Shown here piece after piece: positions 8,376-56,306 of a stretch of 64,000 bases of DNA. The first letter of the stretch is position 1, and each line of letters starts with the position of its first letter. The translations under genes were made by a program, and so were the position numbers. A model generated the notes under the pieces. That model saw only the letters and a list, made by a program, of their open reading frames with translations, was not told the DNA's origin and made no database searches. This DNA comes from Rickettsiales bacterium (lineage in GTDB: Bacteria; Pseudomonadota; Alphaproteobacteria; Methylaequorales; Methylaequoraceae), in contig NZHE01000024.1 of the NCBI GenBank assembly GCA_002691145.1, positions 78,115 through 142,114 on the forward strand. Direction: 5' to 3'.

Positions 8376-9341
8376 ATGTCAAATACAGAAAAAAAAATAA
8401 AAGATTCAATTAAAGTTTTTGAACAAATTCGAAAAAATATCTCATCTGTTTTTTATGGACAGAAAACAGTTGTTGATGAGGTGATGACATCAATTCTGTC
8501 ATCAGGCAATACTCTACTTATTGGAGTTCCGGGTTTAGGTAAAACTCTTCTATTTCAGACTTTATCAGAAATTCTTAAACTAAAGCCCAATAGAATTCAA
8601 TGTACGCCTGATTTAATGCCCTCTGACATACTAGGTGTTGAAGTTTTGACTTCGAAAAATAATGATGAATTTAAGTTTATCAAAGGACCCATATTCTGCC
8701 AATTATTAATGATAGATGAAATAAATAGGGCCAGTCCGAAAACTCAATCAGCTTTATTACAAGCTATGCAGGAAGGTTTTGTATCTGTGGGTGGAAAAAA
8801 TCTTCTTTTACCTAAACCTTTTATAGTTTTAGCTACTCAAAATCCAATCGAACAAGAGGGAACTTACAATCTTCCTGAGGCACAACTCGACAGATTTACA
8901 ATGAATATTCACATCTCGTATCCAGATTATGAAATCGAGAAGGAAATTCTCCTAAAATCAAAATCAGTTTATCCTAAGATAAACAATTTTAATTCTGATG
9001 ATTTATTACGAATAATAAAACTAGTTGATCTCATACCTGTTGGTGAATCTGTTATAAATTTCATACTCAAATTAATCAGAAATCTTCGTCCGGAGTCCAC
9101 AAAATTTGATTTCGTCAAAAAATTTATTAAATGGGGACCAGGTCCAAGAGGAGGGATAGCTTTATTAAATTCAACTAAATCATATTCATTTATAAAAGGG
9201 ACCCTTTCTCCATCAATTTCTGATGTTATCATGATGTCAAAGGCATGCCTTCGCCACAGAATTTCTGTAAATTTTGAAGCAAAAACAGATCAGATTACCT
9301 CTGAATATATTATTAAAAGAGTATGTGAAAATCTGGACTAA
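8376..9341 (+). CDS. MoxR family AAA+ ATPase
   Basis: Walker A GVPGLGKT, RIQCTPDLMPSDI, Walker B LMIDEINRASPKTQSALLQAMQE, ATQNPIEQEGTY.LPEAQLDRF. Confidence 0.96.
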   Translation: MSNTEKKIKDSIKVFEQIRKNISSVFYGQKTVVDEVMTSILSSGNTLLIGVPGLGKTLLFQTLSEILKLKPNRIQCTPDLMPSDILGVEVLTSKNNDEFKFIKGPIFCQLLMIDEINRASPKTQSALLQAMQEGFVSVGGKNLLLPKPFIVLATQNPIEQEGTYNLPEAQLDRFTMNIHISYPDYEIEKEILLKSKSVYPKINNFNSDDLLRIIKLVDLIPVGESVINFILKLIRNLRPESTKFDFVKKFIKWGPGPRGGIALLNSTKSYSFIKGTLSPSISDVIMMSKACLRHRISVNFEAKTDQITSEYIIKRVCENLD

Positions 9342-10174
9342 TGAAAGATTTAATAAAAAAAGCAAAAATTATTTCATCAAAACTTCCAGATATTAAGTTC
9401 GCCATTTCCCATTCAAATTCATTAAACATAGGTGAAGTTAAGATCATGAAAAAAGGTACTGGTGATGAGTTTTTTGAGTATAAAGATTATCTAACCGGAG
9501 ATCCATTAAAAAATATCGATTGGAAAAAGTCTGCTAAGATACAAAAACTTTTAATTAAAAATAAAGAGCACGAAAGTAGTAGAAATATTTGGTTTTGGAT
9601 AGATAACAGCATTTCTATGAAATATGGAAACTTTGAAGGATTCAAAAGCAAATATTACAAATCAATTATTTTGGGTTTAGTTTTGATCGACCTTTCTTTA
9701 AATTCAGGTGAAAAAGTTGGAATTATCGGTTCTGAAATTGGTTTAAAAAAAAATAAAAATGATTTTGTATTGTTAGCCACTAGTTTTATTAAAAATAGCT
9801 ATACTTTAAATGATCCTAGAATAAAAAAAAATGACATAGTAATAATATTTTCAGATTTACTAGAAAAGCCAGAAACATATAAAAAAAAAATATCTAATAT
9901 GTCTCAAAATTTTTGTCATGGAATCATAATACAGATATTACATCCTTATGAACTTAGTTTTCCATTTAAAGGAAGAAAACGCTTTTTCGATCCTGTGAGC
10001 GGCCTCCATAAACTTTTTAATAAAACAGAAAATGTAAAAGAGGTTTACAAAGCGGAATTTAATAAACACCAAAAAAATCTTAATGAAGTTTTTAAAAGAA
10101 TAGGATGGAGATTATTTACTAATATAACTAACTCTAATTATGAAAAAATAATATATCAACTTTATAATAAATAA
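9341..10174 (+). CDS. DUF58 family vWA protein
   Basis: G.GDEFFEYKDYLTGD..K.IDWKKSAK, MIDAS-like DNSISM, FSD. Start overlaps the moxR stop (TAATG). Confidence 0.9.
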   Translation: MKDLIKKAKIISSKLPDIKFAISHSNSLNIGEVKIMKKGTGDEFFEYKDYLTGDPLKNIDWKKSAKIQKLLIKNKEHESSRNIWFWIDNSISMKYGNFEGFKSKYYKSIILGLVLIDLSLNSGEKVGIIGSEIGLKKNKNDFVLLATSFIKNSYTLNDPRIKKNDIVIIFSDLLEKPETYKKKISNMSQNFCHGIIIQILHPYELSFPFKGRKRFFDPVSGLHKLFNKTENVKEVYKAEFNKHQKNLNEVFKRIGWRLFTNITNSNYEKIIYQLYNK

Positions 10175-10181
10175 AAAAGTA

Positions 10182-12890
10182 ATGCTTAATATTGGTAATA
10201 TCGTATTTCAAAACCCTTATTTTTTAATACTTCTACTAACTTTCCCTTTTTTTTGGAAATATTTAAGATCCTCCCCTCTTCTTCCAAGTTTAGTAAAGTT
10301 TCCAGCTATAATTTTAGTTTCTAATCATAAGTCCATTGACAATACTCCTGAAAAGAACTCATTTTTTATTCTTTTATTAAGAATTTTAATTTTTATAATA
10401 TTAGTTTTAGTTCTAAGCAAACCAAAATTTGGGAAAATTAATCACTCTAAGTTTGAACAGCTTGTAATAATTGATAACAGTTGGACCTCTAGTGCAAATT
10501 GGAATGATAGAAAAAGTAAGATTAAAGAGTTATTAAAATCTTATAAATTTTCAAATTTTAATTTTACAATCATGTCTACAACACAACATTCAAAAAATGA
10601 TATTTTAAATGTAACCACTAATAATTATGAAGAGGCAAAAGAATTCTTGCATAAACTGAAACCATTTCCATGGGAACCAAACTACGAGCTTGTTAAGAAA
10701 AACTTAAAAAACAAAGAAAAAAATTTTGATTCAGTATTTTGGTTTACAGAAAGTATTATTAACATAGAAAAGAAAAAATTATATGAATTTTTGAAGCAAG
10801 ATAATTTATTTATTGTTTCAAGTTTAAATGAAAATCTTCCACCAATCTTAAAATTAAATACACAATCTAATGAAACTTATGAATTTGAAATTACACACTT
10901 AGATGAGGGTATTTCAAATGGTTTTATTGATGCATATGATAAAAATAGAAGATTGCTATTTAGGTTTAAATATAATGAAAAATTTGAAAAGGATGGTGAG
11001 TTTTTTAAAACAAATGTAAATCTTGTTTTACCTGTATATCTTAAAAACAAGGTAGACTTTTTTCAAGTAAATTCAATAAGAACGCCATCTACTGTTGTAT
11101 ATTTAAATAAATGGAAAAAAAATAAACTAGTTGGTTTAAGCACTCTAAATTCCAATAAGAACATTCAAGAATTAGATAAAGGTAATTATTACGTAAAAAA
11201 AGCCTTAGAAAAAAACTATAAAATCGTTGAAGATAATTTGGAGAATCTTTTAGCTCAAAATCTGAAAATCATTTACATCGATGATTCTTATCTAATAGAA
11301 AAAAGTTTAGAAAAAAAGTTATTAACTTGGTTAAAAAATGGAGGAACTCTGATTAAATTAAGTGGCAAAAAATTAATTAGAGAACTTAATTTGGGTAATG
11401 AGAACTTTTTTGACTTTACTTTCTCTCTTTTAAAAGAGAGTTCTAATCTCGGTAAAAACCTAAGTCTAAAAAATTTTTTAAAAATTCGAGAATTTGATAA
11501 TAGAAGTCCCTTCTTCGGTCTTGTAATTCCTAATGAGATTAAAATAAAAAAATATATTCAAAGCAATGTAAAAAAGTCTGAGAACATAGAAACTCTTGCA
11601 AATTTGGAAAACGGAGCGTCTTTAATTTCTGCAATGAATTTCGGAAAAGGAAAAATGATTCTTTTTCATGTGCCATGTAATCTTGATTGGTCAAACTTAT
11701 GTTTTTCCTATCTTTTCGTTGATTTAAACGAGAGAATTATTAACTCAATTAAGGGTTTCAAAGAAGAAAATGAAAGAATATTGAAACCGTACTTATCCAT
11801 AAATGGATTTGGAGAATTAGAAAAACCCTATCCGGAAAGTTTAAATATAATTAAAAATTTAGTTCAAAAACAGGTGAAAGTAAAATACGATAAACCACCA
11901 GGTTTGTATAAAGATTCAAATGGAATTTATGCATTAAATTTAAGTGATAGCCTTGATTATAATTTTAAAAAGTTCGAATTTGAAGAAAAAATATTTTCAA
12001 TAAATACACTTAATCATAAAGGCTCAGACTTACAAAATATTTTAATCTCAATAGTGTTTATATTATTTATATTAGAAAATCTTTTTATTATGATAAGTAA
12101 ACAGGCTATTAATTTTAATATTAAAAAAAATTTTAAATTTTTATTTGTTTTTTTGTTAATTCCAACAAATTTAATTGCAACTGAAAAATCAATTTTTAGT
12201 CTAGTTTCAAGTAATAAGATAGGATATGTAATAACAAAAAATAAAAATATTAATGAAATTAATGAAAATGGATTAATTTCTCTATCAAATTTTATAACTC
12301 AAAAAACAGCAGCAATAATGGAACTTCCTGAACCTATAGATTTTTATACCGATGAATTATATTATTATCCTTTGATTTATTGGAGTATTATTGATGAAAA
12401 TACTAATCTTGATGAGAATGAAATAAAAAAAATTAATAATTACACAAAAAATGGTGGTTTATTAATTATAGACTGCAAGACACAATTAAATAATATCTTA
12501 CCCGATGATTGCTTAAAAATATTTAGAAATATATTCCCTCTTAATTTTTTTTCAAAGTTTAAAGTGCTCAATAACTCTCACGCTATTTCAAAAAGCTTTT
12601 ATCTGCTAAATTCTTTTCCGGGGAGGAGAAATAATAAAGTATTTGTTACTTCAAATGAGTCCCAAAAGAGTGACAAAGGGGCTTCCATAGTTCTTAGTAA
12701 TAATCATTGGACTGATTCATGGGCCTTGAATAAGGATAAGGACTTTCTATTCCCTCTTCTTGATAATATTGAAAATCAAAGAACACTATCATTTAGATTT
12801 GGTTTAAATCTTCTCATTCATAGCCTGACTGGAAACTATAAGACCGACCAAGTACACGTACCAGAAATTTTAAAAAGAATAGAAGATTAA
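10182..12890 (+). CDS. BatA N-terminal / vWA-like / DUF4159 domain membrane protein
   Basis: N-terminal FQNPYFLILLL...LLLRILI...P (BatA), IIDNSWTS, and a DUF4159-type C-terminus (YYPLIYW, GGLLIID, LTGNYKTDQVHVPEILKRI). Confidence 0.85.
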   Translation: MLNIGNIVFQNPYFLILLLTFPFFWKYLRSSPLLPSLVKFPAIILVSNHKSIDNTPEKNSFFILLLRILIFIILVLVLSKPKFGKINHSKFEQLVIIDNSWTSSANWNDRKSKIKELLKSYKFSNFNFTIMSTTQHSKNDILNVTTNNYEEAKEFLHKLKPFPWEPNYELVKKNLKNKEKNFDSVFWFTESIINIEKKKLYEFLKQDNLFIVSSLNENLPPILKLNTQSNETYEFEITHLDEGISNGFIDAYDKNRRLLFRFKYNEKFEKDGEFFKTNVNLVLPVYLKNKVDFFQVNSIRTPSTVVYLNKWKKNKLVGLSTLNSNKNIQELDKGNYYVKKALEKNYKIVEDNLENLLAQNLKIIYIDDSYLIEKSLEKKLLTWLKNGGTLIKLSGKKLIRELNLGNENFFDFTFSLLKESSNLGKNLSLKNFLKIREFDNRSPFFGLVIPNEIKIKKYIQSNVKKSENIETLANLENGASLISAMNFGKGKMILFHVPCNLDWSNLCFSYLFVDLNERIINSIKGFKEENERILKPYLSINGFGELEKPYPESLNIIKNLVQKQVKVKYDKPPGLYKDSNGIYALNLSDSLDYNFKKFEFEEKIFSINTLNHKGSDLQNILISIVFILFILENLFIMISKQAINFNIKKNFKFLFVFLLIPTNLIATEKSIFSLVSSNKIGYVITKNKNINEINENGLISLSNFITQKTAAIMELPEPIDFYTDELYYYPLIYWSIIDENTNLDENEIKKINNYTKNGGLLIIDCKTQLNNILPDDCLKIFRNIFPLNFFSKFKVLNNSHAISKSFYLLNSFPGRRNNKVFVTSNESQKSDKGASIVLSNNHWTDSWALNKDKDFLFPLLDNIENQRTLSFRFGLNLLIHSLTGNYKTDQVHVPEILKRIED

Positions 12891-15055
12891 TGACAGAAAA
12901 TATTTTTTCGAATATATATTTTGAACCTATAATACCAATATACCTAATAATCATTCTTATACTTGTATTTATTTTTTCTACTATTCATGCGATAGTAAAA
13001 AAAATTGATGGTTCATTTTTAAGATTTTTTCTCTTAACTTTATTATTAGTTTTGGTGATTCAACCTATTATAAAGATTGAAAACAGAGAGCTAGAAAAGG
13101 ACATAATTACAATTCTAATAGACAAAACTGCTAGTCAAAAAATAACTAATAGAATTAAAGATGTAGACGAAGTTTATAACAAACTATTATCAAAAATTGG
13201 CAAACTAGAAGGTATTGACATTTTAAAAATATCTGTTGATGATCAATCCATTAGAACAAGTTTTGGTAGTATAAAAGAAATCAATTCAGAGCAAAGTGAA
13301 GAAGAAAAAATAATTAGAAATGTAGAAGATTTAAATTCTTCAAAACTAATAAGTATTTTAAAAAATCATATAAACAAGTATCCATCGAAAAAGATTTCTA
13401 CAATCTTCATGATAACAGATGGACAAATTCATGATCTTACAGTTCACTCAGCCTTGGAGAAAATAGAAATTCCTATTTATTATATATTGGCTGGTGATAA
13501 GAAATTAAATGATATCAAACTTACATTAGTATCAAAACCAAATTTTAACTATTTAGATGAAAGAACAAAAATAAAGTTTAAGGTAGAGGATTTTTTGCAT
13601 AATCAAGATTTAGTCGAGCTAACTGTGCAAAATAGCTTTATGCCAGAAATTAAAAAAAAAATTCAGGTTGGTATTGTAAATGATATTGAGTTTGATTTGC
13701 CAAAGATAGGTCAAAATTTTTTTAAGTTATCTGTAGAAAAAAAAGAAAATGAAATTTCAATACTAAACAACTCTGAAATTATAAAAATCGACGGTATAAG
13801 AAAAAAATTAAGAGTTTTGCTCATTTCTGGAAATCCTTATATGGGAACGCGTGTTTGGAGAAATTTCTTAAAATCAGACCCGTCTGTTGAACTAATACAT
13901 ATGACAGTTTTAAGACCGCCAGAGAAAAATGATAATACACCATTTAATGAATTATCTCTCATCCCTTTCCCTATAAAAGAGTTATTTGAAAATAAATTAA
14001 GTAAATTTGAATTAATTATTTTTGATAATTTTAAGGGAAGAAATGTATTATCTCCTTTGTATCTGCAGAATTTAAAAAGATTTGTAAATAATGGTGGAGC
14101 GCTTTTAGAAATTGCTGGACCAGCCTATAATTCAAAATATAGCTTATTTAGAACCGAAATTGGAAGTATTCTTCCTGGAGTACCTTCTGGTAAAGTAATA
14201 AGAAAGGAATTTAAGCCAAAATTAACTGAAATTGGGAAAAAACATCCTATAACACAAAATATATTTGATGATTACAGCAACTATGGTTCATGGTTTGAAA
14301 TGAATAAAATTGAAAATTTAGATAGCAACTCCATAACACTTCTTAATGGAGTTGCAGATTTTCCGCTTTTAACTGTAAAAAGACAAATGAAAGGAAGAGT
14401 AGCGCAAATTTATAGTCATCAAATTTGGCTATGGTCTAAAGCTTTTGAAAAAGACAAAGGTGGTCCTTACAACAAACTAATAAAAAATTTAGCTCATTGG
14501 TTGATGAAAGAACCATTACTGGAAGAAAATAAATTACTTTTAAGCGCAAAGAATAACAAAATATCAATTGAAAAAAGATTCATTACAGTGCCAAATAAAG
14601 ATGAAATTTTTGTCACCATAAAAGAGCCAAACAATTCAAAAAAAGAATTGAGGCTTAAAAAGATTTCAAACTTAAAATACCTAGCAGAATATAATTATGT
14701 TGAAGCTGGAGAATATTTAATTAATGATGGTAACATAGAAAAATCAATAAAAACACAAGAGTTTGAGAATCTTGAACTCAAAAATCTTAATGTTACTGCA
14801 GAAATTATAAATAAAAACAATATATCTAAAAATTTCTCAAAGGTGATTTTATCAGAGGAACTTCAATATTTTAAAGTCAAAGAAGAAAATCTTATTGAAG
14901 AAAAAAGTAAAGACAGTAGAAATATTTATATAAAAAGGAACGATAATTTCATCACAAAGAGCTATAATAATCATCAGGTTTTCAATACTTCATTTTTAGT
15001 TTTTATTATATTTTTTACGATTATTTTATGTTGGAAGAGGGAGAAAAAAAAGTAA
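12890..15055 (+). CDS. Membrane-anchored vWA + class I glutamine-amidotransferase-like domain protein
   Basis: N- and C-terminal TMs, LIDKTASQ and ITDGQIHD (vWA), LRVLLISG.P...R.WRNFLKSDPSVELIH..LRPPEK, GRVAQ...WLW. Coupled to the upstream gene. Confidence 0.8.
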   Translation: MTENIFSNIYFEPIIPIYLIIILILVFIFSTIHAIVKKIDGSFLRFFLLTLLLVLVIQPIIKIENRELEKDIITILIDKTASQKITNRIKDVDEVYNKLLSKIGKLEGIDILKISVDDQSIRTSFGSIKEINSEQSEEEKIIRNVEDLNSSKLISILKNHINKYPSKKISTIFMITDGQIHDLTVHSALEKIEIPIYYILAGDKKLNDIKLTLVSKPNFNYLDERTKIKFKVEDFLHNQDLVELTVQNSFMPEIKKKIQVGIVNDIEFDLPKIGQNFFKLSVEKKENEISILNNSEIIKIDGIRKKLRVLLISGNPYMGTRVWRNFLKSDPSVELIHMTVLRPPEKNDNTPFNELSLIPFPIKELFENKLSKFELIIFDNFKGRNVLSPLYLQNLKRFVNNGGALLEIAGPAYNSKYSLFRTEIGSILPGVPSGKVIRKEFKPKLTEIGKKHPITQNIFDDYSNYGSWFEMNKIENLDSNSITLLNGVADFPLLTVKRQMKGRVAQIYSHQIWLWSKAFEKDKGGPYNKLIKNLAHWLMKEPLLEENKLLLSAKNNKISIEKRFITVPNKDEIFVTIKEPNNSKKELRLKKISNLKYLAEYNYVEAGEYLINDGNIEKSIKTQEFENLELKNLNVTAEIINKNNISKNFSKVILSEELQYFKVKEENLIEEKSKDSRNIYIKRNDNFITKSYNNHQVFNTSFLVFIIFFTIILCWKREKKK

Positions 15056-16650: not shown

Positions 16651-17393
16651 ATGCAAGAAAGATATCTTGGAGATATACACGATTTTCATAAATTTTTATT
16701 TTTAAAATTTATAAAGTATACCTCCTCTTTAAATCTGGGTTTAAATTTTTATAATGTTAACCCAAAAATCCTTGGGAAAAATGAAGTATCCAAGAATGAT
16801 GGTGAAAAAAGAAAATACTTGAATAATGATAGATATAGAAAATTAGATCAGTTAATGATTAAAGAATTCACAGAATTAGTTTCAAAAAAAAATAGAAAAT
16901 TCAAAAGTTTTATAAAATATTCTCATTTAAAAAAATATATTAATTTTTATCATGATGAAATAAGACTCAATGATAGAAAGATTTGGTTTAAAAACTCTAT
17001 CATTAAGTTAAAAAACTGCGATATAATTTTTCTTGACCCAGACAATGGATTGATACCTAAAAGTGTAAAAAAAAATCAATGCAATCATTGAAATATGTTT
17101 TATTTGATGAATTGTCAGAAATCTTAGCTACAAATAAAGTAGTAATTTTTTCTCAATCACAATCTTATTCAAAGTATCATAAAACATTTTTAAAAGAAAA
17201 AATTAACGAAATATCCGATAATATTAATATTTCTGTTAATTTTCCTATCATTAGAAACAGAACGTCACCAAATTCTTTTTTCTTTACAATTTCAAAAGAC
17301 ATATATTTTGATGAAATTAACAGCTTATTAAAAAAATATGCTAATTTTCACGGAAACATAGAATTAATTGATCCTCTTTTTATTACTGAATAA
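16651..17393 (+). CDS. Hypothetical protein (YxGDxxDFxK ... FLDPDNG motifs); apparent 1-nt frameshift in an A9 run at 17067-17075
   Basis: ORFs 16651-17091 and 17079-17393 join with one extra A as ...DPDNGLIPKSVKKKSMQSLKYV..., giving about 247 aa. Confidence 0.75.
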
Positions 17394-18335
17394 TTTATAC
17401 CATGTTATCAAAGCAGGAACTCCAACCAAAATTTCTCTTATTCTTCGACCAATCGCAGCAGAAAATGAAACAGGGCTAGCCAATCCAAGAAAATTTCCAA
17501 CTACAACAAAACTTATTTCTTGGACTCCTAAACCTGCAGGTATAAAAAATACAATCGCTCTAATAATACCAGTAACAGATTCAATTATTATCACATCAAT
17601 AAAATCTACACTTACACCAATTATCAGAAAAAAAACATATATCTCAAATGCTCCGCCTATCCAGCCAAGTGTTCTATAAAAAAGGGCAAGAAACACAATT
17701 TTTAATCTAAAGCTTAATCTAAACAATTCAAAATCAAATTTTATTAAATTATTTATAATCTCTTTATTTAATTTAAGTATTCTTGGAAACTTTCTTAAAA
17801 AAAATTTCATAAATCTTTTTCTGATTGATATACAAAAACCAACTGTAGCAAATATTAAAATTAAAATTGAAAAAGTTAAATATCGCACCTTTTCTTGAAA
17901 AACATTAAGATTTTCAGCATGATAAAATAAGAATAAAAAACTCAATAACGCCATGATTAATAAAGAGAAAGCAGCCAAGGCTAAATCTCCTATTACGGTT
18001 GATGATGCCTCCGAGGTTGTCATACCTTTTTTTATACTCAGATATATTCTAACAAATTCTCCTGTTATGGCGCCGGTTGGTGTAATCTTTCCAGCTGTTT
18101 GTGAAATCCAAGTAATTAAAAAACACCACAATAAACCTAAATAATTTTTTCTCATAAGAATCTTCCAAGCAAGAGTATCCAAAAATAATGTTGGAATATG
18201 AGCCAAAACTAATAACAGTAATTTTTCTTTGTGTGCAACAATATAGTTAATTGATTCTGGTCCAGCGAAAAAGTTATAGATCCAAAAAATTGATATTCCT
18301 CCTAATAAGATAATAAAAAAATTTTTGATTCTCAT
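17364..18335 (-). CDS. Lysylphosphatidylglycerol-synthase TM / HpnL-like flippase-domain membrane protein
   Basis: Multi-TM protein with TP...GEFVR..L, IESV..IIRAIVFFIPAGLGVQE and RRIRE...G.PAL..W, typical of the UPF0104/HpnL group. Confidence 0.8.
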   Translation of the reverse strand: MRIKNFFIILLGGISIFWIYNFFAGPESINYIVAHKEKLLLLVLAHIPTLFLDTLAWKILMRKNYLGLLWCFLITWISQTAGKITPTGAITGEFVRIYLSIKKGMTTSEASSTVIGDLALAAFSLLIMALLSFLFLFYHAENLNVFQEKVRYLTFSILILIFATVGFCISIRKRFMKFFLRKFPRILKLNKEIINNLIKFDFELFRLSFRLKIVFLALFYRTLGWIGGAFEIYVFFLIIGVSVDFIDVIIIESVTGIIRAIVFFIPAGLGVQEISFVVVGNFLGLASPVSFSAAIGRRIREILVGVPALITWYKLFSNKKRIN

Positions 18336-18340
18336 ATGTT

Positions 18341-19098
18341 TTAAATTAATTTGTTAAATTTTATTATCTTACCACGGATCTCTGAAAAACTAGTTGCATC
18401 AACTCTTGGATGCCAGTTAAAAAATGAAAATCTTTTATAAAACATAGTTCCAGAATGAGCTGGCAACAAATAATTATAATTACTAATTGGACGAAAACAC
18501 TCTTTTTCAATCGTCAAGTAAGATAAATTTTTTTGCTCAGAAACATAAATGTTAAGTAGCATTTTTTTTAATTTTTTGTCTTTCTCACTCAGATTATAAA
18601 TGATTTCATTACCATTAATTTTAAAAAAAGTATTTGATGAAATTTTCTGATTAAAATAATTATATTCTGAGTACTCAAGTACTTTTACGTAATTTTTAAA
18701 TTTTGAAGCTAGAAAATTTGCAAGGTCATGGTCCTGATGTCCTCCTTCGTAAGCAGGCGTAAAAACAATCTTAATTTTATATTTTTTGATAATATTTTTT
18801 ATAGAATTAAACGTTTTAAGCAAGTTATCTTTAACCATCCTAGAATTAATTTGTTGAACTTTGTATTTTTTAACTTTAAAAAACTTCATTGATTCTTTTA
18901 ATTCTTTAATTCTCTTATTTAATAAAAACTTGTAATTTTTTTTTCCCAAAACCATCTTGAGTTTTTACTAATTACACCATTTGTGAGAAAGAAAATATAA
19001 ACAAAATTACCTTCTCGAATCAGCTCTCTTATTTTTGTTGATAAACCAACAACTTCATCATCCGGATGGGCGGCTAAAATTAGTACATTTTTGGTCAT
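18341..19098 (-). CDS. PIG-L family de-N-acetylase; apparent 1-nt frameshift in a T9 run at 18936-18944
   Basis: The ATG at 19098 gives MTKNVLILAAHPDDEVVG...IFFLTNG (HPDD motif, missed by the ORF track). It continues after the frameshift into the ORF with AYEGGHQDH and YVSEQ. Confidence 0.88.
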
Positions 19099-20342
19099 TA
19101 TCTACTCAATTTTTTTTTCCAGTGTATGTAGATATCATTAAAAAAAACCTCACTCCAATTTTTGATGTATAAATTAGATAAATTTTTTTTTATTTCTTTT
19201 ATATCCTGTCCCTTGTTAAACAAATATTCTATTTTTTTTGTCCATTTTTCTGCAGTAAACTCGTCTATAATAATCCCATCCCAACCATTTTTGTTAATTC
19301 TTTTTCCCCCTCCATTGGGACTTACTAAACATACGGCTCCACATGCTTTTGCTTCCAAAACAACGTTTGGACCAATTTCATACTGTGATGGAAATACAAA
19401 TAAATCACAAACTGTATATAAGTTAGCAATCTCATTTTGAGGTAAGTACCCAAGTACGTGTAATTTTTCAGGAGCAATAATCTTACAGTGGTCACCGTGA
19501 ATATCTTCACCAGCCATTATTGTTGACACACTAAAACCTTTCGACACAAGCTTATTATGAACCTCTGCAAGCAAAATGGCTCCTTTTAGCTTATGAACTC
19601 TTCCCGAGAAAAAGAGAATTCTATCTTTTTTAGGAATACAATATTTTTCTTTAATTTTTGATGTGCTTATTTTTTTTCTATAAAAAATACTTTTTACTAC
19701 TCCTCTATTTAATTTTGTAATATTAGAATTTTTTGTACAATTAATCAGTTTACTCGGGCTATATATTTGATCAGCAACCATGGCATGATTTACCTTTTCT
19801 ATGTACCTGTATAATTTCTTCAACATTCTTTTCTCAAAAAGATTTGGAATCATCACTTTTTTTATCAAGAAATTATTTAGGCCCAAAAATTTAAACAAAA
19901 AATTATTCAAAATATTAGTTATATAGTATTTTGTGTAAGGAGGCGTATCTGTATGAATTGATGTTGTTATAGGTATTTTCCAGAGTCTAGAGGCAAGCAA
20001 TGCTGTACTTGCCATCGAAAAAAACTGATCAGTTGTATGAATTAAATCATATTTTTTTAATTCAAATAAAAGAAATGGATTTATAGGAAAAAGATCAGTT
20101 TGATCGGCATCAATACCAAGAAATCTTAAATTTTTTGAAGAAAAAATTGGCTTTTTAATCATATAAAAAAGATGACTTGATAATTTTCTTTTTTGACTTG
20201 ATTTGCCAAGAAAAAAAATAGTCAGTTCAAAATCTATTTTTTCTTTTAAAATAATTTCTGATATTCTTTGCCAATATTTTACGTGGCCACCTGCCCTATT
20301 AGATAACTCTAAATCTACTAATACTGCAATTTTTTTTTTCAT
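19098..20342 (-). CDS. Glycosyltransferase family 4 (GT-B)
   Basis: N-terminal AGGH, HTDTPPY, RGV...F, FSGRVHKLKG, DLFVFPSQYEIGPNVVLEAKACG (EX7E). Confidence 0.9.
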   Translation of the reverse strand: MKKKIAVLVDLELSNRAGGHVKYWQRISEIILKEKIDFELTIFFLGKSSQKRKLSSHLFYMIKKPIFSSKNLRFLGIDADQTDLFPINPFLLFELKKYDLIHTTDQFFSMASTALLASRLWKIPITTSIHTDTPPYTKYYITNILNNFLFKFLGLNNFLIKKVMIPNLFEKRMLKKLYRYIEKVNHAMVADQIYSPSKLINCTKNSNITKLNRGVVKSIFYRKKISTSKIKEKYCIPKKDRILFFSGRVHKLKGAILLAEVHNKLVSKGFSVSTIMAGEDIHGDHCKIIAPEKLHVLGYLPQNEIANLYTVCDLFVFPSQYEIGPNVVLEAKACGAVCLVSPNGGGKRINKNGWDGIIIDEFTAEKWTKKIEYLFNKGQDIKEIKKNLSNLYIKNWSEVFFNDIYIHWKKKLSR

Positions 20343-20346
20343 AATC

Positions 20347-22164
20347 TTACTCAGTATCTTTAATGTTTTCTTCCTCTAAATTTCTCCATTCCTGTTCTAG
20401 TAGATTTAGTTCATATTGAAAATTTTTTAGTTTTTCACTAGTTGAAATAAATGTTTGCTTGTCCTCAATATATAAAGTTGAGTTTTCAAGTATTTCTGTG
20501 CATCTAAGAATATTTTCCTCTAATTTTTCAATTTTTTTTAAAATCTTTTTAATTTCCTTTTCGGTGTTATTAGTTTTTTTTGAAGGAATACTCTTTGTTA
20601 TTTTTGGGTCTAGATTTGTTAATTTCTCTTTTTCAGAGTAAAACTTTTCTAATACATCAGAACAACTCTGATTTGATATTTCAATTATTCCATTACCATG
20701 GAAAAAAAAAATTTTTTTACAACACTTGTCTAAAAAATCTCTATCATGTGATGCTATCAAAATTGTCCCTTTGTAATTTTCTAAAAATTTAATAAGCATA
20801 TCTAGCGTTTCTAAATCAAGGTCATTTGTGGGTTCGTCTAAAATTAATAAATTTTTAGGTGAAGCCAAAACTTTAGCTAATAAAATTCTATTCTTTTGTC
20901 CTCCTGAAAGGGAATTGATCTTATCATTTACTTCATTAGGTTTAAATAAAAAGTTTTTTAAATAACCACAAATATGGATTTTTTTGCCATTTATCTCTAT
21001 GTAACCCCCGCCGTTAGGTATTAAATTTTCTTTTATTGTTTTCTCTTGAATAATTTGTTCACTATTTTGATCAAAATAAGAATAACTTATGGAACTTCTA
21101 AATTTAACACTTCCTGTATCGGGAGAAATTTTTTTTAGTATAATATTTAAAAAAGTAGATTTGCCAACCCCATTTTTTCCAATAATTCCAATTCTTTCTC
21201 CTCTAACAAATTTATAATTAAAGTTTTCTATCATTTTAAAGTTCTTTTGACCTACATTATACGATTTCGATATATTAAAGAGTTGAACGACAACATTTGG
21301 TCCTAATTCTTCACCATCTGTAATATTAAATTTAACGTTTGAAATTGCTTTTAAAAAATCTGATTGTTCTTTTTTAAAATCTTTCTCTAGGGATTTAACG
21401 TTTTTTAATCTTCTTTCATTTCTTTTTCTTCTAGCTTTAATTCCCTTTGATAACCAATCCAATTCTTGCTTCAAAAAATTTCTTTTATTTTTTAGCTCTC
21501 TTGATTCTTGTTCAATAAGAGATTGAGACCAATCTTCAAAATTCGAAAAACCTTTTGGTGAAACCTTTATTTTCCCCCTATCCATCCAAAAGACTTTATT
21601 TGTAACATTTTTTAAAAATTTTCTGTCATGGCTTACAACTAAAAATGAACCCTTAAATTCATTATTCAGAAAGTTTTCAAGCCATCTAATGGATTCAATA
21701 TCTAAATGATTCGTTGGTTCGTCTAGTAATAAGAAATTTCCATCATCAACTAAAATCTTGAGTAGTCCTATTTTTCTAATGAGCCCCCCAGAAAGCTCTG
21801 AAATCAGATTATTGTGATTGATTTTTAATTTTTTACAATAATTTTCGATTCTAAACGTATTAAATTCATAATCATTCTCTTTAAAATAATTTTTCAAGTA
21901 ATCACTTACCGTAGACTTAGAAATTATGTTATTCTTTTGTTTTAAATAACTAATTTTTAAATTTGGATTGAACCATATTTCACCACTTTCTGGTTCTTTC
22001 TCTTTATTTAAAATTCTCATTAAAGTAGTCTTACCAACTCCATTTTTTCCTATCAAAGCAATTTTTTCTTGATTATGTATCGAAAATGAGATTTCTTTAA
22101 GAATTGGAGACTTGGTGTATTTAAAAGAACAATCTTTTAGAGTTAGAAAGGTTTCGAATCTCAT
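20347..22164 (-). CDS. ABC-F family ATPase (Uup-like)
   Basis: Two ABC domains (GKNGVGKTT / LSGG / LLDEPTNHLD and GKNGVGKST / LSGG / ILDEPTNDLD), no TMs, coiled-coil C-terminus. Confidence 0.92.
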   Translation of the reverse strand: MRFETFLTLKDCSFKYTKSPILKEISFSIHNQEKIALIGKNGVGKTTLMRILNKEKEPESGEIWFNPNLKISYLKQKNNIISKSTVSDYLKNYFKENDYEFNTFRIENYCKKLKINHNNLISELSGGLIRKIGLLKILVDDGNFLLLDEPTNHLDIESIRWLENFLNNEFKGSFLVVSHDRKFLKNVTNKVFWMDRGKIKVSPKGFSNFEDWSQSLIEQESRELKNKRNFLKQELDWLSKGIKARRKRNERRLKNVKSLEKDFKKEQSDFLKAISNVKFNITDGEELGPNVVVQLFNISKSYNVGQKNFKMIENFNYKFVRGERIGIIGKNGVGKSTFLNIILKKISPDTGSVKFRSSISYSYFDQNSEQIIQEKTIKENLIPNGGGYIEINGKKIHICGYLKNFLFKPNEVNDKINSLSGGQKNRILLAKVLASPKNLLILDEPTNDLDLETLDMLIKFLENYKGTILIASHDRDFLDKCCKKIFFFHGNGIIEISNQSCSDVLEKFYSEKEKLTNLDPKITKSIPSKKTNNTEKEIKKILKKIEKLEENILRCTEILENSTLYIEDKQTFISTSEKLKNFQYELNLLEQEWRNLEEENIKDTE

Positions 22165-22244
22165 ACTATTATATTAGTTATATAGGTATATTAAAAATAA
22201 ATTATGAATTTGAATACCTAATTTATTTATTTAAATAAAATTTT

Positions 22245-22319
22245 TGGCTGGGGTGGCAGGATTCGAACCTGCGAATGCCGATACCAAAAACCGGTGCCTT
22301 ACCGCTTGGCCACACCCCA
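22245..22319 (-). tRNA. tRNA-Gln (anticodon TTG)
   Basis: Reverse complement TGGGGTGTGGCCAAGCGGTAAGGCACCGGTTTTTGGTATCGGCATTCGCAGGTTCGAATCCTGCCACCCCAGCCA: cloverleaf, GTTCGAAT T-loop, encoded CCA. Confidence 0.97.
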
Positions 22320-22365
22320 AAAATCAATTATTACTTAAACATAATAGTTTTTTTAAGTAAACAGG

Positions 22366-23235
22366 TTAAATCTGATTTAATAAATTTCCTGAACTAATCC
22401 ACCAAAATCTATTTATATTAGAAAAAATTTTTTCTGCTTCCTTCAATTTTTGACAATTTTCAAAGAGTCCAAAACACGAAGCTCCAGAGCCAGACATTCT
22501 TGAAAAAAAACTGTCCGTTTTATTTTTAAAAATTTTTAATATCTCATAAATTTCTGGGTGAAGTTTAATTGCTATTTTTTCAAGATCATTCGAGGAATTT
22601 TTAAGTAAACCTAAGAAAGCATCATTGGTGAAGTTTTCAGGCATGACAGTTTTTGAATTATTAAAAATTTTTACATTTTCAAAAATCTCTTTTGTAGATA
22701 CTTGTTTTAAAGGGTTTACGATAAGTATTGGATATTCTGGTATATTAGAAATTGGTCTAATAATATTTCCTATGCCTTGAATAATTGCACTTCTGTTGTT
22801 AAAACAAAATGGAACATCAGAACCTAATTCTAATAAAAATTCGTCTAAAATTTTTTTTTCAATTTTAAAATTAAATCTTTTGATTAAAAATTTTAGTACT
22901 GTTGCAGCATTAGAAGAACCACCCCCTAAACCAGAACTAATTGGAAGATTTTTAACTAATTTAATTTTTACCTTGAATCTTTTTTTTGTTAAGTCTTCAA
23001 GTTTTTCAATGGCTTTTTTTACTAAATTATTATCTTTTTCATTTAAAAATCCTTTAAATGGTCCATCAATTTCAAAAAAAAATTCTCTACATTCTTTTAT
23101 TTCTAAATAATCACCTATGTTGCAGAAACACATAAGACTATTCAAATTATGATAGCTATCGTTTCTTTTTGAAAGAACTTCTAAAAAAAGATTAATTTTT
23201 GCTGGAGAAAAAAATAAGTTCTTATTTTCTTTCAT
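22366..23235 (-). CDS. ispE: 4-diphosphocytidyl-2-C-methyl-D-erythritol kinase
   Basis: SPAKINLFL, KNLPISSGLGGGSSNAA, LGSDVPF, MSGSGASCFG. Confidence 0.96.
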   Translation of the reverse strand: MKENKNLFFSPAKINLFLEVLSKRNDSYHNLNSLMCFCNIGDYLEIKECREFFFEIDGPFKGFLNEKDNNLVKKAIEKLEDLTKKRFKVKIKLVKNLPISSGLGGGSSNAATVLKFLIKRFNFKIEKKILDEFLLELGSDVPFCFNNRSAIIQGIGNIIRPISNIPEYPILIVNPLKQVSTKEIFENVKIFNNSKTVMPENFTNDAFLGLLKNSSNDLEKIAIKLHPEIYEILKIFKNKTDSFFSRMSGSGASCFGLFENCQKLKEAEKIFSNINRFWWISSGNLLNQI

Positions 23236-50036: not shown

Positions 50037-51437
50037 ATGAGTAAAATATTTAAAGAATTGGAAAATATAAAAACCTTAAAAAAAGTTGATGAATTATTTA
50101 ATAATTATGATGACGGCGATTTATTCCTTGAAAAAACATATACTGAAAATTTTGTGTATGATGATAACAAAGTTAAAAACGCAAGTTTTAATGAGGATAA
50201 GGGTTTTGGTTTAAGAGTCATAAAAGAGGACTCTATAGGTTTTGCACATTGCTCTGACTTGAATGAAGTTACTTTAAAAAATGCAATAGAAATGGTGAGT
50301 AAAATTGATAAAAGTAAAAGTTTTAATCAAATAGTACCTAACAAATATCACAGATCACTTTATTCAGATAAAAATCCTTTGTCATTGTATGAGTTTAAAG
50401 CAAAAATACAATTTTTAGAAAAAATTAATGGTTATGCAAGAGCAAAAGATAGTGCAATAAGTCAAGTTTCTATCTCACTAGCTGGTAATTATCAAGAGGT
50501 AGAAATACTCAAGAATCTTGGCAACATTTTTTCCGATTTACGGCCGCTTGTTCGTCTTAATGTAAGTATAACAGTCAGAAAAAATAACATCACTGAAACT
50601 GGTTCATTCGGATTAGGTGGCAGATATATGTACGACACTTTATTCAATGAAAATGTATGGAAGGACGCAGTAGACTCTGCGTACAATCAAGCTTTGATAA
50701 GACTTGAAGCAATTGAAACACCAGCAGGAGAGCAAAACGTAATTCTTGGGCCTGGTTGGCCTGGTATATTGCTTCATGAAGCAATTGGACACGGCTTAGA
50801 AGGAGATTTTAATCGAAAAAAGACTTCAGTGTTTCACAATCTAGTGGGACAAAGTGTTGCTTCGGAACAAATTACTATCGTAGATGATGGCACAATTCCC
50901 GATAGAAGGGGTTCATTAACGATTGATGATGAGGGCACCCCAACCCAAAATACAGTACTTATTGAAAACGGTATCTTAAAAAACTTTATGCAAGATAGAC
51001 TAAATGCAAAACTTATGAATAAAAAACCGACAGGAAATGGAAGAAGGGAGGATTATTCTTGTATACCTATGCCAAGAATGACTAACACTTACATGATCAA
51101 TGGAAAATATGAACATGAAGAACTCATTAAAAGTACAAAAAATGGTGTGTATGCTACCCAGTTCAGCGGAGGTCAAGTTGATATTACCTCTGGAAAGTTT
51201 GTTTTTAGTGCTTCTGAAGCTTTTAAAATCGTAGATGGAAAAATTGATAGACCTCTTAAGGGTGCGACTTTAATAGGTAATGGTCCAGAAGTTTTAAAAA
51301 AAGTTTCCATGGTAGCTAACAACATGAAACTTGACAATGGAATTGGAACCTGTGGAAAAGAAGGGCAATCAGTTCCGGTTGGAGTTGGACAACCTAGCCT
51401 TAAGGTAGATAATCTTACTGTTGGAGGAACAGTTTAG
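50037..51437 (+). CDS. tldD: Metalloprotease TldD
   Basis: GWPGILLHEAIGHGLEGDFNRK, DDEGTP, PMPRMTNT, GTCGKEGQ.VPVGVGQP. Confidence 0.97.
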   Translation: MSKIFKELENIKTLKKVDELFNNYDDGDLFLEKTYTENFVYDDNKVKNASFNEDKGFGLRVIKEDSIGFAHCSDLNEVTLKNAIEMVSKIDKSKSFNQIVPNKYHRSLYSDKNPLSLYEFKAKIQFLEKINGYARAKDSAISQVSISLAGNYQEVEILKNLGNIFSDLRPLVRLNVSITVRKNNITETGSFGLGGRYMYDTLFNENVWKDAVDSAYNQALIRLEAIETPAGEQNVILGPGWPGILLHEAIGHGLEGDFNRKKTSVFHNLVGQSVASEQITIVDDGTIPDRRGSLTIDDEGTPTQNTVLIENGILKNFMQDRLNAKLMNKKPTGNGRREDYSCIPMPRMTNTYMINGKYEHEELIKSTKNGVYATQFSGGQVDITSGKFVFSASEAFKIVDGKIDRPLKGATLIGNGPEVLKKVSMVANNMKLDNGIGTCGKEGQSVPVGVGQPSLKVDNLTVGGTV

Positions 51438-51439
51438 TT

Positions 51440-51730
51440 CTATTTTTTATGAACTTTATCATATATATCTCTCTCGTACTTAATAAAACCATTTATCATT
51501 GTCTTCCAGATTTTAACAATAAGACCTTCTGGTAGATTTTTTTTTTGAGACTCAGAGTCAAGTTCATTCAGAATTTCTTGAATCCTTTTTTTATCTACTA
51601 TTTGATTTTTCTTTTTTAGTCTTACTGCTTCCTCAACTAACAATTTTCTTTTGTAAATTAATTCTAGTAATTTGGAATCAATTTTGTCAATCGAATTTCT
51701 TACCTGGTTTATCGTTTTAAAATTTTTCAT
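51440..51730 (-). CDS. Stand-alone chorismate mutase type II (AroQ fold)
   Basis: VRNSIDKIDSKLLELIYKR..LV..A..LK, VD..R...I. Confidence 0.85.
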   Translation of the reverse strand: MKNFKTINQVRNSIDKIDSKLLELIYKRKLLVEEAVRLKKKNQIVDKKRIQEILNELDSESQKKNLPEGLIVKIWKTMINGFIKYERDIYDKVHKK

Positions 51731-51754
51731 CTATTAAAGTAAATATCATTTTTC

Positions 51755-53092
51755 TTAACCAAATGAATTAAATTTATAAATATTATCAATTTTTTTATTC
51801 CATTTGTTTAAAAAAAGATGTTTCCATACCTCGGCTGGTGATTGTCCGTTCTTTAAAATTTGAAAAAGAGGGTTTAAAAAAATTGATTCATTTTCCCCGT
51901 TGTCATTTAAAATATTTCTTTTAATCAATCCTTTTTTGGAGAGGATTAGCATTTTTTTTAAAAAAGACTTTATATCCTCTCCATCTGGAGTCATCGAGTT
52001 GAGAGCATTTAATGATACAGTTGAATAGAATTCTTTTCTTTGAATATTTGTCCATTTTTTGACCATCTCGTAAACTTCATCAAGAATATCTCGATCATAT
52101 AAAATTCCCGTCCAAAATGCTGGAAGGGCACATACGCTTGACCAAGGGCCACCATCCGCTCCCCTCACTTCAAGAATTTTCTTTAATCTTACTTCAGGAA
52201 ATACAGTTGTGGCATGATCAATCCAATCATCAATTGTCAAGCTTTCTCCATCATTAGAATTATGTAACTCTAGAATTTTTCTAAACGATTTTCCAGTATA
52301 ATCGATGTAATCATTGTTTCTTTTTAAAAAATACATGGGTACATCTAATAAGTAATCAACATACATTTCAAAAGAAAATCCATCATCAAAAACGAAGGGT
52401 AAAATTCCGCATCTATTCTTATCTGTTTTGGTCCAAATCCAGGAACGATAGCTTAGATGTGAAGAGAGTTTTCCCTCTAAAAAAGGGGAATTTGCATACA
52501 ACGCTATCACTGCTGGCTGAATAGCAAGACATACCCTATATTTTTTTATCATATCTATTTCTGATTCATAGTCAAAATTCACTTGAATAGTGCATGTTCT
52601 GAACATCATATCAAGACCGTGTTCACCAGTTTTTTTCATATAATTTTTCATTATTTCGTAACGCTTTTTTGGGATTGTTGGGAAATGTTCTAGCGCCCAC
52701 TTTGGATTAAAACCCATTCCCATGTAATTTACTCCAAACATTTTGGAAACAGAGTTTAACTCAAATTGGTGAGTATTTACCTCTGAACATGTATCAAAAA
52801 TATTACTCAATGGAGCTCCAGATAATTCAATTTGACCTCCTGGTTCAAGTGAAATAGAGCTTCCAGACTTTTTCATTCCGATGACAAAATCATTTTCATA
52901 AATATTCTTCCATCCAAATTTTTTATTTAGTTCTAGAAAAATATTTTTGATGACATCGTATTTAATTGGTTTTAAATCATCAACCAAGTAGCCAAATTTT
53001 TCATGTTCAGTTCCGATTTTCCAATTTTTTTTTTCTTTGCAACCACTTTTAAAGTAATTTATTAGATCTTCTTTGATAATTTTTTTATTCAT
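51755..53092 (-). CDS. gshA: Glutamate--cysteine ligase (plant/alphaproteobacterial type)
   Basis: IGTEHEKF, SLEPGGQIELSG, MMFRTCTIQVN.D, FPEVRLK..LEVRGADGG. Confidence 0.96.
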   Translation of the reverse strand: MNKKIIKEDLINYFKSGCKEKKNWKIGTEHEKFGYLVDDLKPIKYDVIKNIFLELNKKFGWKNIYENDFVIGMKKSGSSISLEPGGQIELSGAPLSNIFDTCSEVNTHQFELNSVSKMFGVNYMGMGFNPKWALEHFPTIPKKRYEIMKNYMKKTGEHGLDMMFRTCTIQVNFDYESEIDMIKKYRVCLAIQPAVIALYANSPFLEGKLSSHLSYRSWIWTKTDKNRCGILPFVFDDGFSFEMYVDYLLDVPMYFLKRNNDYIDYTGKSFRKILELHNSNDGESLTIDDWIDHATTVFPEVRLKKILEVRGADGGPWSSVCALPAFWTGILYDRDILDEVYEMVKKWTNIQRKEFYSTVSLNALNSMTPDGEDIKSFLKKMLILSKKGLIKRNILNDNGENESIFLNPLFQILKNGQSPAEVWKHLFLNKWNKKIDNIYKFNSFG

Positions 53093-53810
53093 TTAAATTC
53101 TCCATGAATATCTTACAACAAGCCACACTAAAGATTGAAGCAGTATCCATTTTAAAAACGCTTGATCCTAGTGAAACAGGATATAAATTTTTTAATTCAT
53201 TTAAATAAAAACGATCTTTTTCTGACCATCCACCTACTGGTCCAATCAGAACGGCTAGTTTTTTTAATGTATTTTTTGACAAAAAGTCGAGAATATTAGG
53301 TGATTTCAAATTTTCATCACAAAGGATGACCAATCTATCGTCAGTCAAGTTTTTAACAAATATTTCTAAATTAACATTAAATTCGATTCGTGGGAGATTA
53401 ATCTGATTGGACTGCTCAGTTGCCTCTATTACTACTCTCCTCATCTTATCAACATTCATTTTTATTTTTTCCGAAAATTCTGTGTTAATCGGAACAATCT
53501 TAGAAACACCAATTTCCGTTACTTTTTCAACCAGAAATTTTACTTTTTTTGATTTTGTCATTCCAAAACAAAGCCAAATATCTTGTTGATTAATTGGTTT
53601 TCTTTTTAAAAACTTTACTTTTACAGAAATTGACTTTTTAATTTTTATAATAAATGCATCCCATTCTCCACAACTTTCGTTAAAAATATTTATTTGATCT
53701 CCAACATTTTTCCTCATAACATTAACTAAATAATGGTAGTTTTCTTTAGAAAGATTAATGACTTTATCCTTAAAAATATCCTCTGGAGTAAAAATACGTA
53801 TCTGTGCCAT
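53085..53810 (-). CDS. rsmE: 16S rRNA m3U1498 methyltransferase
   Basis: HYLVNVMR, VEKVTEIGV, EATEQS, LIGPVGGWS, SLG...K.DTA (SPOUT fold). Confidence 0.92.
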   Translation of the reverse strand: MAQIRIFTPEDIFKDKVINLSKENYHYLVNVMRKNVGDQINIFNESCGEWDAFIIKIKKSISVKVKFLKRKPINQQDIWLCFGMTKSKKVKFLVEKVTEIGVSKIVPINTEFSEKIKMNVDKMRRVVIEATEQSNQINLPRIEFNVNLEIFVKNLTDDRLVILCDENLKSPNILDFLSKNTLKKLAVLIGPVGGWSEKDRFYLNELKNLYPVSLGSSVFKMDTASIFSVACCKIFMENLNE

Positions 53811-53842
53811 CTACTTACAGTGTAATAAAATTTTAACTTATC

Positions 53843-54896: not shown

Positions 54897-54962
54897 AACT
54901 CATTAAAATAAAATTAAATAATTAATATTGTAAATATATCATTAAAATTATAAAGAGATAAT

Positions 54963-56303: not shown

Positions 56304-56306
56304 TTA

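Follow-up and report, generated by a model that had tools for sequence, protein, structure and literature searches.

The 64,000-nucleotide window analysed here (contig NZHE01000024.1 of a Rickettsiales bacterium, positions 78,115 to 142,114, assigned to the Methylaequoraceae) carries on its minus strand three adjacent genes, encoding a glycosyltransferase of family GT4, a de-N-acetylase of the PIG-L/LmbE family and a flippase-like membrane protein related to HpnL, which are examined below as a candidate module for an amino-sugar head group of hopanoids. The elements of the locus, including the short homopolymer on which the reading of the deacetylase gene depends, are the following:

19098..20342, minus strand: GT4 glycosyltransferase (GT-B, retaining-type), open reading frame (ORF) of 414 amino acids (aa)
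18341..19098, minus strand: PIG-L/LmbE-family de-N-acetylase, in two pieces in the record (59 aa and 204 aa)
17364..18335, minus strand: HpnL-like LPG_synthase_TM (UPF0104) membrane protein, ORF of 323 aa
18936..18944: homopolymer, one base short in the record (T9 on the plus strand, A9 on the coding strand)

The three co-oriented genes reported in a preliminary description of this DNA are borne out by the minus-strand ORFs at 19098..20342, 18341..18955 and 17364..18335. The stop codon of the GT4 gene (TAA, 19100-19098) shares one nucleotide with the start codon of the deacetylase gene (ATG, 19098-19096), the coding strand reading TAATG, and a gap of 5 nt (18336-18340) separates the deacetylase stop from the start of the membrane-protein gene; both the overlap and the gap, already claimed in that description, were found in the window sequence. 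The trio thus has the operon-type arrangement of adjacent and co-oriented genes for a glycosyltransferase, a de-N-acetylase and a UPF0104 flippase. Scans of 17000-22600 for transcription signals returned 25 promoter-like sites, with 31.9 expected from shuffled sequences, and 2 terminator-like sites, with 1.2 expected, and are uninformative in such AT-rich DNA.

The trio behaves as a conserved unit, a property on which the preliminary description had made its proposal depend. Full-length GT4 orthologues, with 44-60% identity, occur in 19 of the 24 genomes of the same family, and the five genomes without one are 54-86% complete, one of them (G021) retaining a GT4 fragment at a contig edge; among 16 genomes from other families of the class, no GT4 orthologue was found. 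The order GT4, deacetylase, flippase is kept in all 19 loci fetched from the family genomes and in all 33 close loci of a species collection, one of which has frameshifted genes, the two sets of loci overlapping in part. The relatives that carry the trio are uncultured marine Alphaproteobacteria, and several of them are assigned to TMED127/Methylaequorales in passages of a recent preprint (10.1101/2025.06.11.659106), which describe this group as small, lanthanide-dependent methanol oxidisers of oligotrophic surface water whose hopanoid cluster adjoins a methylotrophy island. An affiliation with SAR11, to which the AT-rich DNA and the marine-type ammonium transporter might have pointed, was rejected in favour of this assignment.

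The deacetylase gene is interrupted in the record. Reading from 19098 yields a piece of 59 residues that contains the motif AHPDDE and then meets a stop, in agreement with the earlier claim that a frameshift splits off the HPDD motif, and the ORF of 204 aa (18341..18955, minus strand) runs on in another frame and carries GGHQDHD. The two pieces cover positions 1-48 (33.6 bits) and 51-127 (35.1 bits) of the PF02585 profile, each over the cut-off of 28.2, which places the product in the PIG-L/LmbE family. In enzymes of this family the HPDD and HxDH motifs bind zinc, and HPDDE and HQDHD are nearly invariant among the deacetylase orthologues. These orthologues have 248-257 aa and form one uninterrupted ORF in 19 of 19 fetched family loci, and both pieces from the window align with intact orthologues end to end across a conserved W-F-W-x-K-K-x-Y stretch. 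A profile search of the PDB with the deacetylase retrieved diacetylchitobiose deacetylase (8.2e-11) and BshB (0.0034). BshB1 is also among its best NCBIfam matches, with the two pieces at 21.9 and 19.1 bits against the 182.5 required for that family (TIGR04001), and neither piece matched the model of the YdjC-type HpnK (TIGR03473). The trio deacetylase is the only PIG-L locus of its own genome.

Public contigs decide the status of the break. At least 93% of the sampled words of the stretch are present in 14 public DNA runs from eight studies, and contigs of three of these runs, from three studies (Logan; X1, the probable source, X13 and X14), were compared with the window at this point. An extra T behind 18935 is carried by X1 (depth 32.2 of 32.2), X13 (19 of 19) and X14 (10.4 of 22.1), the spanning contigs showing 0, 5 and 2 other differences from the window, respectively. 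With the extra T in the T9 run, a single deacetylase ORF is restored, so that the correction recommended in the preliminary description could be made from these contigs. The frameshift is a homopolymer error of the record and the gene is intact in nature; the break that had been noticed is real in the window sequence, and the suspicion of a biological break is not upheld, since the missing base is present in the contigs of all three runs. A true pseudogene, with a pathway that ends at the N-acetylated lipid or decays in this strain, would account for a one-base frameshift inside the gene as given, but it is scarcely credible in the face of the extra base in runs from three studies, including the probable source run, of the catalytic motifs kept on either side of the break, and of the related loci (all 19 and all 33), in which the gene is whole. 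Slippage, programmed or transcriptional, at this A9 run with its A AAA AAA slippery motif was also considered and rejected as unnecessary, because the public contigs carry A10.

The glycosyltransferase belongs to the Glycos_transf_1 family of Pfam (PF00534; 85.3 bits with a cut-off of 26.4, E 4.8e-24), and its AlphaFold model (confidence, pLDDT, 92.3) consists of two Rossmann-like halves whose best PDB matches are all GT4 enzymes of GT-B fold. The motifs noted earlier are both present, as HTDTPPY and RGVVKSIF, and H130, T131, D132, Y136, R213, G214 and F220 are invariant in 16 aligned sequences (P0001 plus 15 orthologues). In an NCBIfam scan the protein matched 23 families at E up to 0.01 and reached no curated cut-off; HpnI (TIGR03472, GT2) is not among these families, and the weak matches include GlcN_PG_synth (5.4e-9), the IagA/BgsA glycolipid transferases and MGlcDAG synthase. 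Membership in the N-acetylglucosaminyl-phosphatidylglycerol synthase family GpgS (GlcN_PG_synth, NF053787) is far off, at 35.3 bits against a cut-off of 480, which no gene of the own genome reaches (best, 69.9 bits). The nearest solved folds to the model are MshA and BshA, with 14-17% identity. MshA and BshA use UDP-N-acetylglucosamine (UDP-GlcNAc), and their products are de-N-acetylated by partners of the LmbE family. A sequence-profile search of the PDB gave matches to the C-terminal domain only (GlgA, BshA and MshA, E 5e-10 to 6e-6), which do not discriminate between acceptors. Among 1.84 billion representatives, a profile search recovered only 129 proteins at E up to 1e-30, and the trio GT4 family is therefore small and distinct. 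Since the nearest folds are MshA and BshA, and the PDB search with the deacetylase retrieves GlcNAc-type deacetylases, an N-acetylhexosamine is the likely donor. Most likely, the enzyme is an N-acetylhexosamine transferase acting on a lipid acceptor, predicted to be a C35 hopanoid polyol.

The membrane protein falls within LPG_synthase_TM (PF03706; 102.8 bits, cut-off 33.4, 3.2e-29, profile positions 20-297 of 302) and within TIGR00374 (54.9 bits, cut-off 43.2), and scores 22.3 bits on the MprF model. Its best NCBIfam family, by about 100 bits, is HpnL (TIGR03476; 157.4 bits over positions 10-314 of 318), with the family orthologues at 123-177 bits. Of the two models suggested for checking it, LPG_synthase_TM is thus passed and HpnL is the best family at a score below the curated cut-off of 195.65; by its match and context, the protein may nonetheless work like HpnL. 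The genomic context expected for HpnL is in place, since shc and HpnH reach their cut-offs both in the own genome and in the family; no HpnL-like gene other than that of the trio was found in the own genome or in any of the 22 family genomes (of 24) with a match. A predicted complex of the flippase and the GT4 (score 0.00, mark 0.32) speaks neither for nor against binding. The stretch is represented in six metatranscriptome runs (X15-X20) with shares of 0.07-0.13, and two short contigs of one of these RNA libraries (X15) are identical to the window over the flippase (18075-18321) and the GT4; since such libraries may contain DNA, these contigs hint at transcription without proving it. The function of HpnL is stated as unknown in passages of two recent publications (10.1101/2025.07.29.667474; PMC12583986). 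In a genome from another family of the class (G040), an HpnL-like gene (167.6 bits) lies in an hpn cluster with HpnA, IspH, HpnH and three CDP-alcohol phosphatidyltransferase-like genes (L112:3066-8150), which points to a partnership of HpnL-type proteins with a phosphate-linked head-group pathway as well.

The genetic content of the host points to a hopanoid producer. Outside the window, on contig C8 of the own genome (about 186400-205300; loci L106 and L110), genes for an HpnM-like protein, HpnA, IspH, HpnH, an HpnH paralogue, an HpnG-like protein, Shc, HpnE, HpnD, Dxs, HpnC and an HpnB-like GT2 are clustered, and an HpnN-like transporter is also encoded in this genome. A match to shc over the cut-off was obtained for the own genome and for 19 of 24 family genomes, and the gene complement indicates that the lineage makes extended hopanoids. 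The canonical enzymes of amino-sugar head groups are not found with them: in 25 family genomes (the own genome and 24 others), none had a match to HpnI (E up to 1e-10) or to HpnK (E up to 1e-5), and none had HpnJ over its cut-off. Three other hopanoid producers of the class, all without the trio GT4, have HpnI, HpnK and HpnJ in a cluster. One of these genomes (G034) has hpnI, hpnJ, hpnK and hpnL head to tail in one row, and HpnL therefore belongs with the canonical HpnI/HpnK/HpnJ branch. One genus of the family has shc, hpnG and the hpnH paralogue close to the trio, at a distance of about 2.3 kb from its flippase end and across an ammonium transporter gene and two small ORFs.

Some further features of these hopanoid genes deserve a record of their own. 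The second radical-SAM gene (L106:12448-13563, plus strand) reaches 429 bits with the HpnH model, whose cut-off is 225, and adjoins the true HpnH gene (545 bits); the paralogue is also found at L013:847-1959 and L014:854-1966, in the genus in which it accompanies shc and hpnG near the ammonium transporter and the trio. Among the 19 family matches listed for the HpnB-like protein, 11 contain one in-frame TAA or TAG, and the match in the own genome contains none; such stops may reflect an artefact of the start site, the presence of two genes or a break that recurs. The hopanoid cluster on C8 directly adjoins one-carbon (C1) genes linked to tetrahydromethanopterin (Fhc/formylmethanofuran dehydrogenase subunits and beta-RFAP synthase), which fits the methylotrophy island described for TMED127.

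Beyond the family, a pattern search recovered 33 distant loci with full-length GT4 homologues of 26-32% identity, in genomes labelled Rhodospirillaceae, Odyssella, Roseiarcus, other Alphaproteobacteria, Bdellovibrionales and Verrucomicrobiales. In 26 of these loci the gene next after GT4 encodes a deacetylase orthologue (hmmsearch E 1e-41 to 1e-78); of the seven remaining loci, three are cut off by a contig edge. When five further genomes were searched, the deacetylase was found elsewhere in four, namely in all four whose GT4 gene has a different downstream neighbour, and the contig-edge case G045 gave no deacetylase match in its genome. A flippase gene lies near the GT4 gene in none of the 33 distant loci. 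The distant genomes are rich in hopanoid genes, with shc in 31 of the 33 (30 over cut-off) and HpnL over its cut-off in 30, and poor in canonical head-group enzymes, with HpnI over cut-off in 2 and HpnJ in 3; in the comparison set of 16 genomes from other families of the class, shc was found in 6 and HpnL over its cut-off in 3. The check for co-occurrence with shc and hpn genes proposed in the preliminary description thus shows a GT4/deacetylase pair that tracks shc and HpnL. In four distant loci (L064, L065, L078 and L079), hpnH is situated 0.1-3.5 kb upstream of the GT4 gene, with hpnE and hpnD beyond. Fusions were sought among the 150 best representatives of the GT4 profile search: P0044 joins a full HpnL (231.4 bits, over cut-off) to a trio-type GT4, P0066 is an equivalent fusion with HpnL at 193 bits, and P0093 is a fragment of the same HpnL-GT4 kind. 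One distant metagenome-assembled genome (MAG) has a Fic/RhuM-family gene (L074:8238-9299, plus strand) inserted between GT4 and deacetylase.

Taken together, these data favour, with a probability of roughly 0.6, the explanation that the trio is a hopanoid head-group module, that is, a non-orthologous route to a hexosaminyl hopanoid with the HpnL-like protein as its flippase; the broader claim, of an amino-sugar lipid made and moved by the trio, is more probable still. We infer donor, acceptor, product and flipping from the gene identities, their coupling and conservation, the intact deacetylase, the co-occurrence and the fusions. The GT4 enzyme would transfer GlcNAc or another N-acetylhexosamine from a UDP-sugar onto the polyol side chain of a C35 hopanoid, such as bacteriohopanetetrol (BHT), supplied by Shc, HpnH and HpnG. 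The PIG-L/LmbE enzyme, presumably zinc-dependent as its family and motifs suggest, would then strip the acetyl group to leave a cationic hexosaminyl hopanoid, and the HpnL-like protein would take this product to the outer leaflet of the inner membrane, in the manner proposed for the flippase domain of MprF, for GpgF and for HexF. The GT4 and LmbE enzymes would in this way do the jobs of HpnI (GT2) and HpnK (YdjC), both of which were not found in the lineage, and since HpnJ was not found either, no cyclitol ether is expected. The transfer, deacetylation and flipping of a lipid that had been envisaged from the window are supported by family matches, gene coupling and conservation. Of the three acceptors considered at that stage, the hopanoid gains from the presence of shc, hpnH and hpnG, from the missing HpnI, HpnK and HpnJ matches, from the tracking of shc and HpnL by the pair, and from the hpnH neighbours and the fusions, and nothing was found in support of glucosaminyl-diacylglycerol or of a donor for lipid A modification; the suggestion of a phosphorus-free replacement lipid likewise found no support.

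Several observations weigh against the hopanoid explanation. The acceptor specificity cannot be read from the GT4 sequence, the membrane protein stays under the curated HpnL cut-off, and the trio in the window is not beside hpn genes, the hpn cluster being on another contig. The HpnB-like GT2 of that cluster could itself glycosylate hopanoids. Two of the 33 distant genomes showed no shc, and most of the distant pairs sit among housekeeping genes (a regulator, M15 peptidase, PmbA, Bpt) and not among hpn genes; moreover, because the compared genomes are related, the co-occurrence counts of 31 and 30 in 33 overstate the independence of the cases. Three distant genomes have canonical enzymes, with HpnJ over cut-off in G055, G059 and G070, HpnI over cut-off in G055 and G070, and an HpnI score of 278.9 bits against the required 310 in G059, so that the pair is no simple replacement there and its product may be another one. 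The fusions come from metagenomic gene prediction, and a further one, P0103, in which a piece of HpnN is joined to a trio-type GT4, looks like read-through.

The trio could instead make and flip a glucosaminyl glycerolipid, either glucosaminyl-phosphatidylglycerol, as gpgSDF does, or glucosaminyl-diacylglycerol, with the hopanoids merely co-resident in the membrane. The gpgSDF operon, in the text available of its description (PMC12713373), has the same logic of GT4, deacetylase and UPF0104 flippase, the GT4 of the trio matches GlcN_PG_synth, IagA/BgsA and MGlcDAG synthase weakly, and the lack of linkage to hpn genes in the window is as this alternative would have it; nevertheless, the distance of the GT4 from the GpgS cut-off, not reached by any gene of the genome, the different fold of the deacetylase from that of GpgD (COG3233, PMC12713373), and HpnL as by far the best family of the flippase make it unlikely, and it would not predict the tracking of shc and HpnL, the adjacency of hpnH in four loci or the HpnL fusions.

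Alternatively, GT4 and deacetylase may act on a non-lipid or non-hopanoid acceptor of the envelope, such as a soluble glycoside resembling a thiol precursor, a lipopolysaccharide or lipid A sugar, or a polyprenol-linked sugar, with the membrane protein in another role. MshA and BshA, the nearest solved folds, take soluble acceptors, the distant neighbours are mostly envelope or housekeeping genes (M15 peptidase, PmbA), and MsbA and KdtA are also encoded in the window. A thiol role is countered by the failure to find BshC in this 96.9%-complete genome, MshC not having been searched for, and by gshA, which is present in the window as claimed earlier (51755-53092; TIGR01436, 560.7 bits, cut-off 463.15), so that glutathione covers the need for a thiol. 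A soluble product needs no flippase, yet a flippase gene lies 5 nt away and keeps this place in every one of the related loci (19 and 33), HpnL-GT4 fusions exist, and the co-occurrence with shc and HpnL is left unexplained; an acceptor of this kind is accordingly considered rather improbable.

A wider proposition may be put forward tentatively, as one that is possible and short of an even chance: that HpnL is the flippase of amino-sugar hopanoids, and that with the GT4/LmbE pair a second route to hexosaminyl hopanoids has evolved independently, the only one found in many producers, and spread over several alphaproteobacterial lineages and over MAGs labelled Bdellovibrionales and Verrucomicrobiales. 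Hopanoids are sterol-like, major membrane lipids of bacteria and the source of geohopane biomarkers, and their polar head groups determine how membranes behave and serve as markers in taxonomy and environmental studies. If the hopanoid explanation holds, HpnL, for over a decade an orphan of hopanoid clusters, would gain a testable function, screens limited to hpnI, hpnJ and hpnK would miss producers of amino-sugar hopanoids, and a concrete hopanoid product would be predicted for abundant open-ocean methanol oxidisers; the marine methylotrophs of TMED127 would export to the ocean lipid record a hopanoid signature with hexosamine and without cyclitol ether. The pair could also account for isomers of BHT-glucosamine, or for producers without hpnI, hpnJ and hpnK, both of which are described as unexplained so far in passages of PMC12583986; four species are reported there to produce hopanoids of the cyclitol-ether type although hpnI, hpnJ and hpnK are lacking.

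The surroundings of the trio are as follows. Upstream lie the ABC-F gene uup, which ends 4 bases before the GT4 gene, and, farther off, ispE. Many genera of the family have an additional gene between uup and GT4 (L020:7206-8615, minus strand; L026:4583-5986, plus strand), whose product, a multi-pass membrane protein of about 467 aa, looked by eye like a DASS-type anion transporter. On the other side, the trio is bordered by two small ORFs:

16651-17091, plus strand: small ORF of 146 aa, conserved in the family, no Pfam or NCBIfam match
17079-17393, plus strand: small ORF of 104 aa, likewise conserved and without a Pfam or NCBIfam match, in overlap with the 3' end of the oppositely oriented flippase gene

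Across the family, both small ORFs always adjoin a gene for a marine-type ammonium transporter, and since they travel with this gene and not with the trio, they are not counted among its parts. Upstream of the ammonium transporter, a cluster resembling the Bat aerotolerance operon (8376-15055, plus strand) encodes a MoxR-type AAA ATPase, a DUF58 protein, a BatA/DUF4159 protein and a protein of 721 aa. Farther along the window (50037-60772) are TldD, gshA, PmbA (54963-56303), an MsbA-like gene (57101-58870) and KdtA (59504-60772); PmbA, 35 kb from the trio here, is directly upstream of the GT4/deacetylase pair in distant genomes.

Among known systems, MshA/MshB and BshA/BshB share with the trio the pairing of a retaining GT4 that uses UDP-GlcNAc with a zinc deacetylase of the LmbE/PIG-L type, a pairing also found in PIG-A/PIG-L of the glycosylphosphatidylinositol (GPI) anchor pathway. 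They differ in that MshA and BshA have only 14-17% identity to the trio GT4, that the family cut-offs are missed by far, and that a flippase gene is coupled in the trio. The closest parallels in operon logic are gpgSDF of Pseudomonas aeruginosa, a synthase-deacetylase-flippase operon for glucosaminyl-phosphatidylglycerol, and hexSDF of Clostridioides difficile, built on the same logic, as described in passages of PMC12713373 and PMC10128005, respectively. As far as these passages go, both share with the trio the three-gene operon of a glycosyltransferase, a deacetylase and a UPF0104/MprF-like flippase and, on the product predicted for the trio, a cationic amino-sugar lipid, and the synthase of gpgSDF is likewise a GT4; they differ in an unrelated deacetylase family, in a GT4 of the trio that is no orthologue of GpgS, and in their acceptors, phosphatidylglycerol or glycosyl-diradylglycerol, whereas the acceptor of the trio is probably a hopanoid. 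The view of the preliminary description that no such gene combination had been described thus holds in part: the operon logic is already published in those two cases, and a link of hopanoids to a GT4 and an LmbE-type enzyme was not found in print. Literature searches for hopanoids with LmbE, PIG-L or GlcNAc-PI de-N-acetylase returned only an unrelated review, supplementary tables of genes near shc not being covered; the passages available of the TMED127 preprint (10.1101/2025.06.11.659106) mention the hopanoid cluster and not the trio, and those of the FArhodopsin paper (PMC10308929) contain a single generic mention of hopanoids.

In predicted chemistry, the nearest system is the canonical hopanoid branch, in which BHT is converted to BHT-GlcNAc by HpnI, to BHT-glucosamine by HpnK and to the cyclitol ether by HpnJ (Schmerk et al. 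2015, as cited in the passages considered of PMC12583986). The addition of GlcNAc to a C35 hopanoid followed by de-N-acetylation, and a partner of the HpnL family, would be common to this branch and the trio, and both occur in genomes with shc, hpnH and hpnG. The differences lie in the enzymes, since the transferase of the trio is a GT4 of GT-B fold and HpnI a GT2, and its deacetylase is of the PIG-L/LmbE family and HpnK of the YdjC type; in HpnJ, which does not accompany the trio, so that no ring contraction is expected; and in the flippase, which in the trio is below the HpnL cut-off. If the hopanoid explanation is correct, the trio would be a further case of non-orthologous replacement, in which both enzymes of a two-step lipid modification have been exchanged and the flippase partner has been kept.

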